A stretch of DNA of 64,000 nt from Escherichia coli O127:H6 str. E2348/69 (GCF_000026545.1 NC_011601.1); one strand, 5' to 3'; positions 1,939 to 57,607 are shown, numbered from the stretch's first letter. Made by a program: numbers and translations. Notes: generated from the sequence alone by a model not told the origin.

Positions 1939-2111
1939 TTATTTTTTCAAATTCCTCTTTATAAGATAATCAGGGCTTTATTTTCAGCCCTGGTTGTTTT
2001 ATATTCATCGCTGTTGCTTATTTAGACATTTTGTACTTTTATTGTTGAGGTTATTAAGCGAAGCGACAATGGATTGTGTCGCTGCGGTTTTATAAGGTTG
2101 GGGAGTGGCAG

Positions 2112-5977: not shown

Positions 5978-7885
5978 ATGTCATTAATCAGTATGCATGG
6001 CGCATGGCTGTCGTTCAGCGACGCGCCGCTTCTCGATAACGCCGAACTGCATATCGAAGATAACGAACGTGTTTGTCTGGTGGGGCGTAACGGTGCAGGC
6101 AAATCAACGTTAATGAAGATCCTCAACCGTGAACAGGGGCTGGATGACGGTCGCATTATTTATGAGCAAGATTTGATTGTAGCTCGTCTGCAACAGGATC
6201 CGCCGCGTAACGTTGAGGGTAGCGTTTATGATTTCGTTGCCGAAGGCATTGAAGAACAAGCGGAATACCTGAAACGCTATCACGATATTTCGCGCCTGGT
6301 GATGAACGACCCGAGCGAGAAAAATCTCAACGAACTGGCGAAGGTTCAGGAACAGCTGGATCACCACAACCTGTGGCAGCTGGAAAACCGCATCAACGAA
6401 GTGCTGGCGCAACTGGGATTAGATCCTAATGTTGCGCTGTCGTCGCTTTCCGGCGGCTGGTTGCGTAAAGCGGCATTAGGACGCGCGCTGGTGAGCAATC
6501 CGCGCGTATTGCTGCTCGACGAACCGACTAACCACCTAGATATTGAAACCATCGACTGGCTGGAAGGGTTCCTCAAAACCTTCAATGGGACAATTATTTT
6601 CATTTCCCACGACCGTTCGTTTATCCGCAATATGGCGACGCGCATTGTTGATCTCGATCGCGGCAAGCTGGTGACCTATCCAGGGAATTACGACCAGTAC
6701 CTGCTGGAAAAAGAAGAAGCCCTGCGCGTGGAAGAATTACAAAATGCCGAGTTCGAGCGCAAACTGGCGCAGGAAGAGGTGTGGATCCGCCAGGGGATCA
6801 AAGCACGTCGTACCCGTAATGAAGGCCGCGTACGCGCCCTGAAAGCAATGCGTCGCGAGCGTGGTGAACGTCGCGAAGTGATGGGTACCGCAAAGATGCA
6901 GGTGGAAGAAGCCAGCCGCTCCGGTAAGATCGTTTTCGAAATGGAGGACGTTTGCTACCAGGTTGACGGTAAGCAACTGGTGAAAGATTTTTCTGCCCAG
7001 GTTCTACGCGGCGACAAAATTGCCCTGATTGGTCCGAATGGGTGCGGCAAAACCACGCTGCTGAAACTAATGCTCGGTCAGCTTCAAGCAGACAGCGGGC
7101 GTATTCATGTTGGCACCAAACTGGAAGTGGCTTATTTCGATCAGCACCGCGCGGAACTGGATCCCGATAAAACGGTGATGGATAACCTTGCCGAAGGTAA
7201 GCAAGAGGTGATGGTTAACGGCAAGCCACGCCACGTATTGGGCTATTTGCAGGACTTCCTGTTCCATCCAAAACGGGCGATGACGCCGGTACGTGCGCTT
7301 TCTGGCGGTGAGCGTAACCGCTTGTTGTTGGCGCGTTTGTTCCTCAAACCAAGCAACTTATTGATTCTTGACGAACCGACCAACGATCTTGATGTCGAAA
7401 CGCTGGAACTGCTGGAAGAACTGATCGACAGCTATCAGGGCACGGTATTGCTGGTTAGCCACGATCGTCAGTTTGTCGATAACACCGTTACAGAATGCTG
7501 GATCTTCGAAGGCGGCGGTAAAATTGGTCGTTATGTCGGCGGTTATCATGATGCCCGTGGTCAGCAAGAACAGTATGTGGCGCTCAAACAGCCTGCGGTG
7601 AAAAAAAGCGAAGAAGCCGCTGCGCCAAAAGCAGAAACTGTAAAACGCAGCAGTAGCAAACTAAGCTATAAATTGCAGCGCGAACTGGAGCAGCTACCGC
7701 AATTGCTTGAAGATCTGGAGGCGAAGCTGGAAGCCCTACAGACGCAGGTGGCGGATGCTTCCTTCTTCAGTCAGCCCCATGAGCAGACACAAAAAGTGCT
7801 CGCCGATATGGCTGCTGCAGAGCAGGAGCTGGAGCAAGCCTTTGAACGCTGGGAGTATCTTGAAGCGTTAAAAAATGGTGGCTGA
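5978..7885 (+). CDS. uup: ABC-F ATPase Uup
   Basis: 635-aa ORF with two Walker A motifs (GRNGAGKST, GPNGCGKTT) and C-terminal coiled coil. Confidence 0.95.
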   Translation: MSLISMHGAWLSFSDAPLLDNAELHIEDNERVCLVGRNGAGKSTLMKILNREQGLDDGRIIYEQDLIVARLQQDPPRNVEGSVYDFVAEGIEEQAEYLKRYHDISRLVMNDPSEKNLNELAKVQEQLDHHNLWQLENRINEVLAQLGLDPNVALSSLSGGWLRKAALGRALVSNPRVLLLDEPTNHLDIETIDWLEGFLKTFNGTIIFISHDRSFIRNMATRIVDLDRGKLVTYPGNYDQYLLEKEEALRVEELQNAEFERKLAQEEVWIRQGIKARRTRNEGRVRALKAMRRERGERREVMGTAKMQVEEASRSGKIVFEMEDVCYQVDGKQLVKDFSAQVLRGDKIALIGPNGCGKTTLLKLMLGQLQADSGRIHVGTKLEVAYFDQHRAELDPDKTVMDNLAEGKQEVMVNGKPRHVLGYLQDFLFHPKRAMTPVRALSGGERNRLLLARLFLKPSNLLILDEPTNDLDVETLELLEELIDSYQGTVLLVSHDRQFVDNTVTECWIFEGGGKIGRYVGGYHDARGQQEQYVALKQPAVKKSEEAAAPKAETVKRSSSKLSYKLQRELEQLPQLLEDLEAKLEALQTQVADASFFSQPHEQTQKVLADMAAAEQELEQAFERWEYLEALKNGG

Positions 7886-8014: not shown

Positions 8015-9268
8015 ATGTGCGAACATCATCATGCCGCGAAGCACATCCTGTGCTCGCAGTGTGACATGCTGGTGGCGTTACCGCGCCTTGAGCATGGTCA
8101 GAAAGCGGCATGTCCCCGGTGTGGCACAACGTTAACCGTGGCGTGGGATGCCCCTCGGCAGCGTCCCACCGCCTATGCGTTGGCTGCACTGTTCATGCTG
8201 TTGCTGTCCAACTTGTTTCCTTTTGTGAATATGAACGTTGCAGGAGTTACCAGTGAAATTACATTACTGGAAATTCCCGGCGTGCTTTTTTTTGAGGACT
8301 ACGCCAGCCTCGGCACCTTTTTCCTGTTGTTTGTGCAACTGGTTCCCGCGTTTTGTCTGATAACCATTCTGTTACTGGTGAATCGCGCGGAATTACCGGT
8401 CCGTTTAAAAGAGCAACTGGCACGGGGGCTTTTTCAACTCAAAACCTGGGGAATGGCGGAGATTTTCCTCGCGGGTGTGCTGGTCAGTTTCGTTAAACTG
8501 ATGGCTTACGGCAGCATTGGTGTCGGCAGCAGCTTTCTCCCCTGGTGTTTATTTTGTGTCCTGCAACTGCGCGCCTTTCAGTGCGTTGATCGTCGCTGGT
8601 TATGGGATGACATCGCCCCGATGCCAGAGCTGCGCCAGCCGCTAAAACCAGGCGTCACGGGGATACGTCAGGGGCTGCGTTCGTGCTCCTGTTGTACGGC
8701 AATCCTTCCTGCTGATGAACCCGTGTGCCCGCGCTGTGGTACTAAAGGGTACGTTCGACGTAGAAACAGCCTGCAATGGACACTCGCGCTGCTTGTTACG
8801 TCCATCATGCTGTATCTTCCGGCTAATATTTTGCCCATCATGGTGACGGATTTATTAGGCTCGAAGATGCCGTCGACGATTCTTGCTGGGGTCATCCTGT
8901 TATGGAGCGAAGGCTCTTATCCCGTCGCTGCGGTGATCTTTCTGGCCAGTATTATGGTGCCAACGTTAAAGATGATCGCCATTGCGTGGCTGTGTTGGGA
9001 TGCCAAAGGACACGGCAAGCGCGACAGTGAAAGAATGCATTTGATTTATGAAGTTGTTGAGTTTGTAGGCCGCTGGTCGATGATTGACGTTTTCGTTATC
9101 GCGGTGCTCTCGGCGCTGGTGCGTATGGGAGGTTTAATGAGTATTTATCCGGCAATGGGTGCATTAATGTTTGCTTTAGTCGTCATAATGACAATGTTTT
9201 CTGCTATGACGTTTGACCCGCGTTTGTCGTGGGATCGTCAACCTGAATCAGAGCATGAGGAGTCCTGA
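8015..9268 (+). CDS. pqiA: paraquat-inducible membrane protein PqiA
   Basis: 417-aa polytopic membrane ORF with N-terminal CxxC pairs; operon with pqiB. Confidence 0.9.
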   Translation: MCEHHHAAKHILCSQCDMLVALPRLEHGQKAACPRCGTTLTVAWDAPRQRPTAYALAALFMLLLSNLFPFVNMNVAGVTSEITLLEIPGVLFFEDYASLGTFFLLFVQLVPAFCLITILLLVNRAELPVRLKEQLARGLFQLKTWGMAEIFLAGVLVSFVKLMAYGSIGVGSSFLPWCLFCVLQLRAFQCVDRRWLWDDIAPMPELRQPLKPGVTGIRQGLRSCSCCTAILPADEPVCPRCGTKGYVRRRNSLQWTLALLVTSIMLYLPANILPIMVTDLLGSKMPSTILAGVILLWSEGSYPVAAVIFLASIMVPTLKMIAIAWLCWDAKGHGKRDSERMHLIYEVVEFVGRWSMIDVFVIAVLSALVRMGGLMSIYPAMGALMFALVVIMTMFSAMTFDPRLSWDRQPESEHEES

Positions 9269-24373: not shown

Positions 24374-24417
24374 AAAATCCCCGGAAGGCAAAAACCTTCC
24401 GGGGATTTGTTCAGGGA

Positions 24418-31788: not shown

Positions 31789-32372
31789 GCGAGCAACGCG
31801 TGGTGGTAATGGGGCTGGGCAACCTGCTGTGGGCCGATGAAGGCTTCGGCGTGCGGGTGGCGGAACGGCTGTATGCCCATTACCACTGGCCCGAGGATGT
31901 GGAGATTGTCGATGGCGGCACCCAAGGACTGAACTTGCTGGGGTATGTCGAAAGCGCCGGTCATCTGTTGATTCTCGATGCCATTGATTACGGGCTGGAA
32001 CCCGGAACGCTACGAACGTATGCCGGAGAACGCATTCCGGCTTATCTCAGCGCGAAGAAAATGAGCCTGCACCAGAACAGTTTCTCCGAAGTGCTGGCGC
32101 TGGCAGATATCCGCGGACATCTGCCAGCACATATTGCCCTCGTCGGTCTGCAACCCGCGATGCTCGACGACTACGGCGGCAGCCTGAGCGAACTGGCGCG
32201 GGAGCAACTGCCCGCCGCGGAACAGGCGGCGCTGGTACAGCTGGCGGCCTGGGGAATTGTACCGCAACCGACTGAGGAGTTGCGCTGTCTCAATTATGAC
32301 TGTCTGTCGATGGAAAATTACGAAGGCGTTCGCTTGCGTCAGTACCGGATGACACTGGAGGAGCAGGGATGA
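31785..32372 (+). CDS. hyaD: hydrogenase-1 maturation protease
   Basis: 195-aa ORF; operon order. Confidence 0.85.
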
Positions 32373-36552: not shown

Positions 36553-36562
36553 CGAACGTAAG

Positions 36563-36595
36563 TCTGATGCGGCGCATTAGCGTCGTATCAGGCAA
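36563..36595. repeat. REP-like palindromic element
   Basis: tgatgcggcgcattagcgtcgtatcaggc resembles the E. coli REP consensus. Confidence 0.5.
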
Positions 36596-54973: not shown

Positions 54974-55259
54974 TACTGATAGCGCCATAGCGTGAGCGGT
55001 AATTACGCAGGCGCGGGTCAATTTCAGGGAAGTGTGTATATGCGGCTTTGCGGAATGGTCGTATTGATGTCTGGTAAATTCGCTCTCGTTCTTCTTTCTC
55101 TGCAAGCCATATACAGTGGCGAAATTCCTTTTCCTCTTTCGTTTCCTGCGGTAGCGACATTATCCGGTCGTAGTTTTTCCTGAATTTATCCAGCACCTCC
55201 GATACGGAATTGCCGGAACAGCGGCGCGGGTCATCCGCACCATACTGAGGCGCTGGCAT
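54966..55259 (-). CDS. hypothetical phage protein (97 aa)
   Basis: ORF immediately downstream of ssb. Confidence 0.45.
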
Positions 55260-55272
55260 GATTTTCTCCTGA

Positions 55273-55779
55273 TTAAATTGCGTGAATAGCGTGACGAGGG
55301 AAGGGGAGAGTTACTGGTGCAAAGGGTATATCGTCGTCAAAATCCATCGGAGGTTCGTTGTGTTGTGCTGGTGATGATTGCTGCTGTGGCTTCTGTGATT
55401 GCCTGCTGGCTGCTTGTTGTTTGCTGTCGCCAATGCCGCCAAGCATTTGCATCACGCCATTAATTCCGACATGAACCTCGGTTGTGTAACGGTCTTGCCC
55501 TGACTGGTCTTTCCACTTTCTGGTTCTCAGCATTCCCTCGAAATAAATCTGATCACCTTTTTTCACATACTGCCCCACGACCTCAGCCAGTTTCCCGGAT
55601 ACAGCAACACGATGCCATTCAGTCAATTCCTTTTGCTCGCCAGTATTTTTATCTCGCCATTGTTCTGACGTGGCTATTGTCAGGTTAGCGAACGCTGTTC
55701 CTGATGGTGAGTATCGAACTTCCGGGTCTTGTCCTACCCGACCAAGGATAATCACCTTATTTACGCCTCTGCTTGCCAT
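55273..55779 (-). CDS. ssb: phage single-stranded DNA-binding protein
   Basis: 168 aa starting [23 protein letters not shown] (OB fold), Gln/Pro-rich linker, acidic tail DFDDDIPF. Confidence 0.9.
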
Positions 55780-56487
55780 TTATGCTGCCTGTTTTAGTTC
55801 GTTAACTCTGATGTTCATTACCTGAACACATTTAGCCTGCGCCTCCTCGTTGCCAGCCATTAATTGCCAGTCACGCTGATAACGCTCGATGAGTTTTTTC
55901 TTGTCAGTTTCTGTCGCTGCATAATCGCTGAAGTCTTTCAGGATTTGTTCGCAGTCAACCGATGGAGATTTCTGGTTGGTATTTTCTGGTGATGGTTTGT
56001 TATCTGATGCTGGGATTGCCCATCCCGGCAGTGATGGAGGTAGCCAGTAAAATCCTGTTCCATCCTTCAGTTTTGCCCTGTGCCACCCCTGCTTTTTATC
56101 GAGAGATGTTTGTGCGAAACCTTCCTCAAGGTTATACAGATACCGACCGATTCCCCACTGAACGGCAGCGCGCTTCATTGCACCGGAACGACCGCCTTTG
56201 ACAGCTTCTACCTGCGTGTTTTCAGCAGCATCCCATTTGGTTACCCATTCGGAATCAATCCTGATTGATATGCCGCATTCAACGCCTCCGTTGTTGGGAA
56301 TATCGCGGTATTCATTGCGCCATCCTGCTTTGCCGCAAACATCGTCCAGACGTTTCATGATTGCCCGGTTCGTGACATAAGCCAGCACCATAGCCCACAC
56401 CTTGCCATCGCGTGTTTTACCGCTTTGCTGTATTCGCCATTCGATATCTTCAGGGCTGAATGGCTCATCGAATTTGTTCAAATCCAT
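55780..56487 (-). CDS. single-strand annealing recombinase, Rad52-like N-domain with Erf-like C-terminus
   Basis: 235 aa; N-terminal half has Rad52/Sak-type motifs (GISIRID, AMKRAAVQWGIGRYLY); C-terminal 50 aa (EQILKDFSDYAATETDKKKLIERYQRDWQ...) resembles P22 Erf C-terminus as recalled; adjacent to ssb. Confidence 0.7.
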   Translation of the reverse strand: MDLNKFDEPFSPEDIEWRIQQSGKTRDGKVWAMVLAYVTNRAIMKRLDDVCGKAGWRNEYRDIPNNGGVECGISIRIDSEWVTKWDAAENTQVEAVKGGRSGAMKRAAVQWGIGRYLYNLEEGFAQTSLDKKQGWHRAKLKDGTGFYWLPPSLPGWAIPASDNKPSPENTNQKSPSVDCEQILKDFSDYAATETDKKKLIERYQRDWQLMAGNEEAQAKCVQVMNIRVNELKQAA

Positions 56488-56586
56488 AATTCACCTCAGA
56501 ATGGACACGGCCCAAGGAAATAACGCTGATTTAATACTTCGACTCGGGACAAATTAAGGCATACCCGCATTCCTTCGCGGTCGCCA

Positions 56587-56745
56587 TTATGGCGATACCA
56601 GAGAGCTTTCTGCGTGTACATGCGTCTCTGTAACTTGCTCTCCTTCACTGTGGTTGCAAGTGACATGAATATCTCCTTCGTTACCGATTAATTCTTTCAT
56701 CTGACGAATGAATTCTTCGTCTGAGCAGTTATCTGTAAAACTCAT
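56587..56745 (-). CDS. small acidic hypothetical protein (52 aa), coupled to kil
   Basis: Hand-translated ORF MSFTDNCSDEEFIRQMKELIGNEGDIHVTCNHSEGEQVTETHVHAESSLVSP; its ATG overlaps the kil-like stop (ATGA). Confidence 0.3.
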   Translation of the reverse strand: MSFTDNCSDEEFIRQMKELIGNEGDIHVTCNHSEGEQVTETHVHAESSLVSP

Positions 56746-56894
56746 TTCCTGCGATACCACGGAAGGTTGATAGCTGATTTCATCGCTTTATTTGCTTCAA
56801 GCCACATTTTGGAATCACCAATAAATCTGGCTATTACTGCTTTGTTCTGTGCAGCACGAAGCATCTGGTGATTGATGGCTATTTCATTGCGCAT
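56742..56894 (-). CDS. kil: Kil-like host-killing small protein
   Basis: Hand-translated 50 aa MRNEIAINHQMLRAAQNKAVIARFIGDSKMWLEANKAMKSAINLPWYRRK; FIGD-x-KM motif and position next to cIII as in lambda. Confidence 0.45.
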   Translation of the reverse strand: MRNEIAINHQMLRAAQNKAVIARFIGDSKMWLEANKAMKSAINLPWYRRK

Positions 56895-57013
56895 AACGCC
56901 TCCAGTTGTTTCTTTGCTGCTCTGATTAATTGTTTAACTCGGCGTGATAATTCAGATTCGTGCGGGTAGAAAGCGGACATGACGCCGCTACCCGCGAGCT
57001 GAAAGTGCATCAT
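56879..57013 (-). CDS. cIII: cIII-like FtsH inhibitor
   Basis: 44 aa MMHFQLAGSGVMSAFYPHESELSRRVKQLIRAAKKQLEALCAMK after RBS aaggag; pattern resembles lambda CIII (AG...V...P.ES.L..R). Confidence 0.5.
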   Translation of the reverse strand: MMHFQLAGSGVMSAFYPHESELSRRVKQLIRAAKKQLEALCAMK

Positions 57014-57088
57014 GGGTAACTCCTTATATTTGATTGCATAACGAAAACGCCTCGAGTGAAGCGTTATTGGTATGCGGTAAAGCCGCAC

Positions 57089-57457
57089 TCAGGCGGCCTT
57101 GATAGTCATATCATCTGAATCAAATATTCCTGATGTATCGATATCGGTAATTCTTATTCCTTCACTACCATCCATTGGAGGCCATCCTTCCTGACCATTT
57201 CCATCATCCCAGTCGAACTCACAAACAACACCATATGCATTTAAGTCTTTCGAAATTGCTATAAGCAGAGCATGTTGCGCCAGCATGATTAATACAGCAT
57301 TTAATACAGAGCCGTGTTTATTGAGTCGGTATTCAGAGTCTGACCAGAAATTATTAATCTGGTGAAGTTTTTCCTCTGTCATTACGTCATGGTCGATTTC
57401 AATTTCTATTGATGCTTTCCAGTCGTAATCAATGATGTATTTTTTGATGTTTGACAT
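57089..57457 (-). CDS. highly acidic 122-aa protein in the lambda ea10 slot
   Basis: ORF with RBS gagga; C-terminal EFDWDDGNGQEGWPPMDGSEGIRITDIDTSGIFDSDDM; low GC; terminator directly upstream. Confidence 0.6.
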   Translation of the reverse strand: MSNIKKYIIDYDWKASIEIEIDHDVMTEEKLHQINNFWSDSEYRLNKHGSVLNAVLIMLAQHALLIAISKDLNAYGVVCEFDWDDGNGQEGWPPMDGSEGIRITDIDTSGIFDSDDMTIKAA

Positions 57458-57475
57458 CTATTCATATCCTCATAG

Positions 57476-57503
57476 ATAAAAAATCGCCCTCACATTAGAG
57501 GGC
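57476..57503 (-). terminator. intrinsic terminator between the 156-aa moron and the 122-aa gene
   Basis: Minus-strand hairpin gccctc-taatgt-gagggc followed by gatttttt. Confidence 0.7.
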
Positions 57504-57607
57504 AAAGAAGATTTCCAATAATCAGAACAAGTCGGCTCCTGTTTAGTTACGAGCGACATTGCTCCGTGTATTCACTCGTTGGAATGAATACACAGTGCTT
57601 ATTCGTA

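Follow-up and report, generated by a model that had tools for sequence, protein, structure and literature searches.

A covarying RNA hairpin accompanies the PreS small RNA in the early-left operons of lambdoid phages and prophages

A perfect inverted repeat in a lambdoid prophage of Escherichia coli O127:H6 str. E2348/69 (GCF_000026545.1, NC_011601.1) raises the question of which transcript it belongs to and what it does there. We analysed it within a stretch of 64,000 nucleotides (the window), numbered from its first base. The initial annotation, made from the sequence alone, had described a perfect 9-bp inverted repeat, GTGTATTCA-ctcgttggaa-TGAATACAC at 57566-57593 on the plus strand, lying between the stop codon of a 156-aa open reading frame and an intrinsic terminator, and both the repeat and its position were confirmed. 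The 156-aa ORF stops at TAG (57610..57608, minus strand); the repeat starts 9 nt past this codon and is separated by 56 nt from the terminator stem, which is downstream in the sense of the transcript. That annotation credited the repeat and the terminator to the 156-aa gene, a presumed moron, and offered either an RNA hairpin or a protein-binding palindrome as its nature. The analysis presented here assigns the element to a different transcript and, as argued below, favours the first of these alternatives.

The prophage is lambdoid, and the locus, whose gene order is that of phage 933W, is its early-left (pL) operon (Table 1). The sense strand of the hairpin is the minus strand, which is also the sense strand of the pL operon and of all neighbouring genes, and the element lies downstream of N in the same order as in lambda and 933W. 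The 156-aa ORF is AT-rich (34-38% GC) and is a variable occupant of the slot after N, outside the conserved unit described below; a promoter scan of 56900-58600 found no minus-strand promoter-like site, including none for this ORF. Two further features of the operon were observed. A 280-aa ORF at 58848-59690 (minus strand), between the cI-like and N-like genes, occupies the position of rexAB in lambda and of stk in 933W. A second intrinsic terminator at 57046-57065 (minus strand; AACGCUUCACUCGAGGCGUU UUCGUU) follows ea10 ahead of the small ORFs at the cIII/kil position, and in phages that lack ea10 its sequence comes directly after the PreS terminator, forming another conserved junction block.

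Table 1. Coordinates of the features of the locus and of other long hairpins in the window
Feature	Position	Strand	Remarks
38-nt RNA hairpin, allele A1	57598..57561	-	5'-GCACUGUGUAUUCAUUC-CAAC-GAGUGAAUACACGGAGC-3'; perfect 9-bp core 57566-57593
Conserved outer pairs of the hairpin	G1-C38, C2-G37, C4-G35	-	hairpin base, with A3×A36 mismatch
Conserved loop-proximal pairs	57575..57584	-	U16-A23 (57583/57576), U15·G24 (57584/57575); C17-G22 and CAAC loop between
Loop-proximal pair A14-U25	hairpin position 14	-	conserved near the loop
5' flank CGAAUAA	57599..57605	-	semi-conserved; a remnant here, past the ORF's own TAG stop
PreS/LPR1 homolog, about 88 nt	57564..57477	-	5' end GAGCAAUG by the preprint's primers; 3' end tL2a U-tail
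PreS seed region GACUUGUUCUGAUUAUUGG	57515..57533	-	seed pattern match
Intrinsic terminator tL2a	57478..57505	-	stem-loop 57505..57484, U-run (T-run) 57483..57478; terminator scan
cI-like repressor	60592..59771	-
N-type antiterminator	58493..58137	-	Pfam N_peptide, phrog_271
156-aa ORF	58078..57608	-	phrog_1636, function unassigned; equals 933W L0079; without Pfam match
ea10	57457..57089	-	DUF2528; downstream of the cassette here and in lambda
Small ORFs	56969..56496	-	cIII/kil position of lambda and 933W, placed by position only
235-aa ORF, then 168-aa ORF	beyond the small ORFs (56969..56496)	-
Five other long hairpins	1960-2003 (+), 24375-24408, 32097-32130, 36562-36593 (+), 45525-45562 (-)		at least 14 contiguous pairs

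The repeat extends beyond its core to 17-nt arms (57561-57577 and 57582-57598), and RNA structure prediction, proposed in the initial annotation as a check, returned a stable hairpin on the minus strand (dG -20.2 kcal/mol, z = -6.7) with 14 contiguous pairs, two of them U·G, an A×A mismatch, 2 further pairs and the loop CAAC. Read as plus-strand RNA, the repeat folds at -14.6 kcal/mol (z = -3.5), the weaker fold arising because the wobbles of the sense strand turn into C·A mismatches, and the 150-nt intergenic region as a whole reaches -50.5 kcal/mol on the minus strand versus -38 kcal/mol on the plus strand. The hairpin pattern occurs once in the whole window, and its exact form, with up to 2 mismatches allowed, was found in 0 of 100 shuffles. 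In dinucleotide shuffles of the window, however, a 9-bp inverted repeat without mismatch and with a spacer of 3-20 nt turns up on average 5 times per shuffle, and 50 of 100 shuffles contain a stem of 14 bp or more. Taken alone, the statistics of the window stay within chance, and it is the comparative evidence that establishes the feature. The window also holds five other hairpins with at least 14 contiguous pairs, against a shuffle mean of about 1, the longest of them reaching up to 18 bp at 1960-2003.

Directly downstream of this hairpin lies a homolog of LPR1, renamed PreS, an Hfq-dependent small RNA of lambda encoded between ea10 and ral (Silverman et al., bioRxiv 10.1101/2024.10.31.621285). 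PreS is reported to be about 88 nt long and processed to about 68 nt, to have the terminator tL2a as its 3' end, to be produced in lytic growth only, and to activate translation of dnaN, raising host DnaN and aiding phage replication (bioRxiv 10.1101/2024.10.31.621285). In the window, the corresponding predicted small RNA ends at the tL2a intrinsic terminator with a U-tail of the Hfq type, and its homology to lambda LPR1 includes the seed. The two loci share their sequence, their pL location upstream of ea10, their tL2a 3' end and the seed GUUCUGAUUAUUGG; the published M1 mutation alters CUG within GUUCUGAUU of this seed (bioRxiv 10.1101/2024.10.31.621285). From the hairpin through the terminator, the alignment shows identity to lambda save for 2 bases in the terminator loop, with 2 further differences past the terminator in the ea10 leader, and the block conserved between the window, lambda and 933W runs from the first base of the hairpin via the terminator into ea10, the hairpin itself being identical in all three. 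Upstream, lambda carries ral where the window has the 156-aa ORF, and homology ends at the 5' base of the hairpin. The same terminator is annotated "homology to phage lambda; tL2A" in the Sf6 record (AF547987), and an Rfam 15 scan of 55000-61000 gave no match at E <= 1.

The position of the hairpin relative to the 5' end of PreS is central to its interpretation. The primers used for cloning and for in-vitro transcription with T7 (P810, P1103, P1104) place the start of PreS at GAGCAATGTCGC and its end in the tL2a U-tail, and the deletion primers agree with a 5' end at GAGCAAUG (bioRxiv 10.1101/2024.10.31.621285). PreS then begins with G35, the nucleotide at which the 14-bp stem of the hairpin ends (window 57564); this placement derives from the primers together with a northern band of about 88 nt and is coarser than single-nucleotide. 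The preprint defines the small RNA from GAGC onward, leaving the hairpin, its conservation and the origin of the 5' end undescribed, and its text is silent on any hairpin or stem-loop, on both RNase III and RNase E, and on a promoter for PreS; in P969, the primer used for the full deletion, the homology arm runs up to ...GAATACACG, which means that the hairpin is retained in the Δlpr1 phage (bioRxiv 10.1101/2024.10.31.621285). In the predicted fold of the 88-nt form, the 5' GAGCAA is paired with UUGUUC of the seed, while in the fold of the precursor GAGC sits in the base of the hairpin instead; on these models, trimming to the 68-nt form would expose the seed. As a separate observation, CGCUCGUAA at 57546-57556 (minus strand), within the first 20 nt of PreS, resembles the lambda nut boxA CGCUCUUA, matching it at 7 of 8 positions. 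About 0.06 such boxA-like matches are expected by chance per 150 nt, and the motif falls within the segment that trimming from 88 to 68 nt removes.

Comparison across phages revealed how the hairpin has been maintained. Scans of IMG/VR anchored on the PreS body yielded first 210 and then 292 PreS-like cassettes, and in 292/292 a hairpin stands immediately 5' of (G/U)GAGC-AAU. Conservation in homologous prophages had been proposed as a check in the initial annotation; across these cassettes the structure is conserved and the sequence of the arms is not. The 292 cassettes contain 39 distinct hairpin sequences with common flanks and at least five unrelated arm classes, namely A1 (5' arm UGUGUAUUCA; this window, lambda, 933W), A2 (UAUAGCAGA; mEp043, mEp213, P22) and, from IMG/VR contigs, A3 (UAAUGACCA), A4 (UAAUGCGGA) and A5 (UUAUCGACU). 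When positions are numbered from the outside inward and the 39 unique hairpins are scored, positions 1, 2 and 4 are almost invariant (G-C, C-G and C-G), position 3 is an A×A or G×A mismatch in 38/39, and position 5 is U·G or a mismatch. Positions 6-13 show 2 to 5 canonical pair types each and are paired in at least 37/39, after which position 14 is A-U, position 15 is U·G in 35/39 and position 16 is U-A in 39/39.

This pattern of substitution with retained pairing is reflected in the covariation statistics. Aligned with MAFFT, 13 representatives have 93.3% of their cells paired, compared with 26-46% in slid registers; 9/15 pairs are altered on both sides, and the covariation score is 0.65 versus 0.15 in shuffles, with 0/500 shuffles reaching 0.65. 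Between A1 and A2 alone, 8/15 pairs are compensatory, and between alleles with identical flanks the arms differ at 8/9 positions; the compensatory counts stem from a few replacements of one allele by another and should not be read as numerous independent substitutions. One single variant turns the stem into a perfect 17 bp. Complementary arms could be produced without selection by quasi-palindrome template switching, though not the strand asymmetry of the wobble pairs: there are 70 G·U cells on the sense strand and 3 A/C cells, the counterpart expected of antisense wobbles, and the sense fold is stabler than the antisense fold in 20/21 variants. Neither a DNA-level constraint nor palindrome-perfecting template switching explains this asymmetry. 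The hairpin has been selected as an RNA structure on the pL-sense strand.

Several other identities for the element were considered and rejected. As an operator-like palindrome it has unconserved half-sites (8/9 positions differ), and its asymmetries are strand-specific G·U pairs. A Rho-independent terminator had already been discounted in the initial annotation for want of a U-run, and we agree, as the palindrome is followed by GGAGCAAUGUCGC and the minus-strand terminator scan finds 57505..57484 and 57065..57046 only. A sigma-70 promoter for PreS was likewise set aside, there being no minus-strand site in 56900-58600 and the sole conserved upstream sequence being the hairpin with its variable arms. 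A small ORF is also rejected, as the ORFs overlapping 57547-57732 sit in a block whose arms are swapped wholesale between phages.

The distribution of the element shows that it travels with PreS and not with the genes on either side. Among 192 cassettes with full flanks we found 22 upstream-context clusters, lambda ral among them, and 12 downstream clusters in 75 combinations. Conservation starts at the base of the hairpin, often with CGAAUAA or AGAAUAAACACU just ahead of it, and stops at the T-run of the terminator; in several other phages CGAAUAA is the final sense codon and stop of the upstream gene (GAA UAA). The hairpin therefore belongs to a small-RNA cassette of hairpin, PreS and tL2a and not to the 156-aa gene, and the terminator earlier credited to the moron is tL2a, a part of that cassette. 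The proposal that the element belongs to or regulates a cassette of the 156-aa moron is not supported, with the unit present in 22 upstream and 12 downstream contexts. As for its suggested regulatory character, the RNA half survives as the best reading, namely an RNA processing or stability hairpin, given the compensatory changes, the at least five arm classes and the G·U excess, whereas the protein-binding palindrome does not, its arms being unconserved and its G·U pairs confined to one strand. In many phages (e.g. L211:1413-1440 and IMG/VR loci), and not in the window, a second terminator-like stem was seen about 25 nt upstream of the hairpin, followed by UUUAUUUUU, with variants GGCCGCAUAGUCGGCC, GGCUGCCUGAUGGUGGCC and AACCCGCUCAGGCGGGUU and compensatory differences in the stem; lambda's own copy of this stem is weak and lies at the end of ral.

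The cassette is widespread. Of the phage records, 304 contain the A1 hairpin and 325 the PreS body, and the palindrome element is 100% conserved in 289 phage records. The 121-nt cassette (57477-57598, minus strand) is present in 2233/5426 complete E. coli genomes in RefSeq (41%), in up to 6 copies per genome and in 20 places on plasmids, with no annotated feature under it among the eight E. coli matches listed. The homologs reported for lambda PreS were limited to at least 92% identity (bioRxiv 10.1101/2024.10.31.621285), and our scans extend beyond these to diverged P22-type bodies and at least five hairpin alleles. P22 itself (L214:1200-1345, between orf87 and gene 17) carries the hairpin with a diverged PreS-like small RNA, as do many Salmonella and P22-like contigs (loci L215-L290). 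In the P22-type small RNA the seed reads GUUCUGGUUA(U/A)U..., the motif CCCUUGAU is conserved and the terminator is another one; identity lies well under 92%. A third, more diverged body, GAGCC(A/G)AUCCGCGCUC...GUUCUGAUUAA...terminator, stands behind A4 or A2 hairpins (L332, L340, L378, L380, L352, L354), and the middle stem-loop of the small RNA appears to covary between body types. When the hairpin flanks were searched for ahead of something other than 'A', six true, more diverged cassettes were recovered, the remainder being mostly chance matches in unrelated viruses.

Two individual loci provide natural variants. On the minus strand of contig IMGVR_UViG_2595698474_000001 (L016), two cassettes stand 1.4 kb apart (PreS-core matches at 7187-7205 and 8584-8602), the first copy with hairpin A2 and without the 3' half of its terminator (GCCCTCCGAAATGCGGGAAC...), the second with hairpin A1. 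In HK022 (L212:100-125, 1165-1200), IS903 lies within the hairpin, flanked by a 9-bp target duplication (TCATTCCAA), leaving the arms about 1 kb apart and the PreS body intact downstream, a natural disruption of the hairpin. Because HK022 is viable with IS903 in this position, the hairpin is non-essential.

If the hairpin is a selected RNA structure attached to PreS, the question becomes what it does for this small RNA. We consider it most likely that the hairpin is an RNA processing and stability signal, an explanation to which, with RNase III as the favoured enzyme, we give somewhat better than an even chance. PreS must be cut from the pL transcript, because no conserved promoter is possible among unrelated upstream contexts and variable arms, and because PreS is seen only when pL is active. 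The hairpin would position this cut, since it is the sole conserved element 5' of it. In the mechanism that we propose, a pL read-through transcript would carry the hairpin ahead of PreS, and RNase III would dock on its upper stem of 11-13 bp, as at the intercistronic sites of phage T7, reading the loop-proximal UA/UG as a distal box. The enzyme would then nick the 3' arm within the mismatch-interrupted base, freeing PreS with a 5'-monophosphate. The mRNA upstream, which in this prophage encodes the 156-aa protein, would be left with a 3' hairpin that blocks 3'-to-5' exonucleases. The base is fixed and holds two mismatches, the inner stem varies freely, and the top is again fixed, as A-U/U·G/U-A; such a distribution has the look of a recognition signal and not of a mere stable stem.

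The published requirements of RNase III in vitro allow this proposal to be compared with the sequence. The minimal substrate is a hairpin of 34 nt (uR1.1), in which 11 bp or more must separate the loop from the cut; beside the loop lies the distal box, canonically UA/UG with U on the 5' arm and about 10-11 bp from the cut, of which UG is stringently required; the consensus of the proximal box is GC, W-W', AU, W-W', in which G-C or C-G at positions 2 and 4 weakens binding and cleavage; and internal loops confine the enzyme to one strand, so that the RNA upstream keeps a 3' hairpin that protects it (Pertzev & Nicholson 2006, PMC1540722). We applied this consensus qualitatively, as in-vitro rules. 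Pairs 6-16 supply the required 11 bp in at least 35/39 unique hairpins, with 13 bp in A1, and the 11 pairs from the UA/UG set to the mismatched base equal the reported minimum helix length. The distal box corresponds to the conserved U16-A and U15·G pairs, with ambiguity as to which of the two is position 1; as a baseline, 475 other hairpins from phage DNA with stems of at least 11 bp were examined, and 5.5% of them have UA/UG near the loop. Counting 11 bp and applying the 2-nt overhang rule puts the 3'-arm cut between G35 and A36, 1 nt off the cloned 5' end. In the proximal box, positions 2-4 of A2-A5 are occupied by U·G, A-U or U-A. Against RNase III stand the G-C pairs that A1, the allele of the window and of lambda, has in the same register at proximal-box positions 2 and 4, and the stem below the putative cut, which has just 3 pairs. 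On sequence grounds the match to RNase III is suggestive, not decisive. Literature searches on tL2a, and on RNase III together with ea10, turned up nothing relevant apart from the PreS preprint and one review, and a search by exact sequence returned only an unrelated paper that prints lambda sequence.

Comparison with known processing systems helps to place this predicted signal. It resembles signals of the T7 R1.1 type in being an intercistronic hairpin within a phage polycistronic early transcript, in its size (38 nt versus the 34-nt minimal substrate), in having at least 11 bp from the loop to the cleavage region and in the UA/UG set next to the loop, and the mismatches at its base could confine cleavage to the 3' arm, leaving a protective 3' hairpin. 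It differs in the proximal-box G-C pairs of A1, in its very short lower stem, in a downstream product that is an Hfq-binding small RNA and not an mRNA, and in that cleavage here is only predicted. Transcripts from pL also contain the RNase III hairpins of lambda sib and of the N leader, which control RNA fate; these lie at other locations, have longer stems, serve int retroregulation and N translation respectively, and share no sequence similarity with the PreS hairpin. A further precedent is found in 3'UTR and intra-operonic small RNAs released by RNase E, such as MicL and CpxQ, which have their terminator in common with a longer transcript and are freed endonucleolytically. PreS is like these in its shared terminator, its presumed release by cleavage and its extra shortening (88 to 68 nt), yet the known determinants of RNase E release are stem-loops 3' of the cut, inside the small RNA, and to our knowledge no dedicated covarying hairpin 5' of the cut has been described for this group.

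The strongest competitor to RNase III processing is a passive role, in which RNase E or another single-strand endonuclease makes the cut and the hairpin only stops 3' exonucleases, or insulates the fold of the small RNA against mispairing with variable upstream sequence, or does both; we regard this as a real but distinctly lesser chance. Most enterobacterial small RNAs freed from longer transcripts are cut by RNase E, MicL and CpxQ being examples, and an insulator would explain why the element is retained across 22 upstream contexts. The base of the stem is weak, with its A×A mismatch and variable position 5, and could be single-stranded, and the unfavourable proximal-box pairs of A1 again count on this side. 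Inspection of the sequence found no motif like RN|WUU, that of RNase E, at or by the GAGCAAUG 5' end, however, and a passive stem leaves unexplained why the loop-adjacent U·G and U-A pairs are retained (35-39/39) while the inner stem turns over completely. A variant of the stabilising idea moves the cut upstream into GAAUAA, so that the hairpin becomes a 5'-terminal structure shielding a longer PreS precursor, or the ea10-cIII mRNA, from 5'-end-dependent decay by RNase E. A 5' stem-loop is known to stabilise E. coli mRNAs, ompA being the paradigm, and the AU-rich, semi-conserved CGAAUAA does lie directly 5' of the hairpin; but GAAUAA is merely the end of the upstream ORF in many phages and is missing in two contexts, and the northern bands are at about 88 and 68 nt, not at about 122 nt (bioRxiv 10.1101/2024.10.31.621285), which makes this variant quite unlikely in our view.

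The remaining alternatives place the function in DNA or dispense with function. The Sf6 record annotates precisely the 113-nt block from hairpin G1 to the last base of the tL2a stem as "bsq4; boundary sequence" (AF547987), and the cassette, as a short block conserved between unrelated flanking modules, fits the description of a lambdoid boundary sequence. That it is nothing else, a homology patch for module exchange whose palindrome has no RNA function, agrees with an established concept in the literature, with the break in lambda/window homology at the 5' base of the hairpin and with the 75 flanking combinations. We nevertheless hold it unlikely. The Sf6 element is the same hairpin-to-tL2a unit at the same kind of mosaic junction as here, but the boundary-sequence concept concerns DNA recombination and posits neither RNA hairpin nor small RNA, and the block holds an experimentally validated sRNA. 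A homology patch should also keep its sequence, and would not predict arms that are replaced with pairing kept and with strand-specific G·U. The small-RNA and crossover roles are compatible, and the conserved body of the small RNA may well serve as a crossover site too. Least probable, and already largely refuted, is either an operator-like site at which a dimeric protein would bind the palindrome as DNA and control the 156-aa gene, or a repeat that arose by chance. The 9-bp dyad is perfect, and repeats of its kind number about 5 per shuffled window; yet the arms diverge between alleles with identical flanks, the imperfections are one-strand G·U (70 vs 3), the element is independent of the 156-aa gene, and a chance repeat would not be found intact throughout the phage records and E. 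coli genomes counted above.

A broader interpretation, which we put forward as doubtful and well short of the processing model, is that hairpin, PreS and terminator form an autonomous portable small-RNA cassette, supplying its own processing signal, payload and terminator, a non-coding moron moving among lambdoid and P22-like phages, with the inner stem, of which at least five unrelated arm sets are seen between fixed flanks, under diversifying selection. Under such a reading the excised hairpin of about 30 nt could possibly be a functional or targeted RNA, or the arms could set a phage-specific specificity of processing or exclusion.

Much of the material on which this work builds is already known, including the lambda sequence, PreS itself and the boundary sequence, and processing or stabilising hairpins in phage polycistronic mRNAs are classical, so that the hairpin introduces no new principle. 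In the accessible literature we did not find described the hairpin as a constant, covarying part of PreS, its arm alleles, its RNase III-like signature or the diverged P22-like homologs, although a later version of the preprint or the S1-mapping papers of the 1980s on pL processing may cover some of this. What our analysis contributes is a reassignment of the hairpin and terminator away from the adjacent accessory gene, a candidate answer to how PreS is released from the pL transcript, which the 2024 preprint, the sole report on PreS that we found, leaves unaddressed, and a new reading of the boundary sequence, a label now twenty years old, as a module of functional RNA. The covarying hairpin emerges as an obligatory companion of PreS-like small RNAs in lambda, in Stx-converting phages of the 933W type, in P22, in Sf6 and in hundreds of prophages. 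If the proposed release mechanism is true, the cassette could follow any gene without destabilising its mRNA, which would fit its mosaic distribution.
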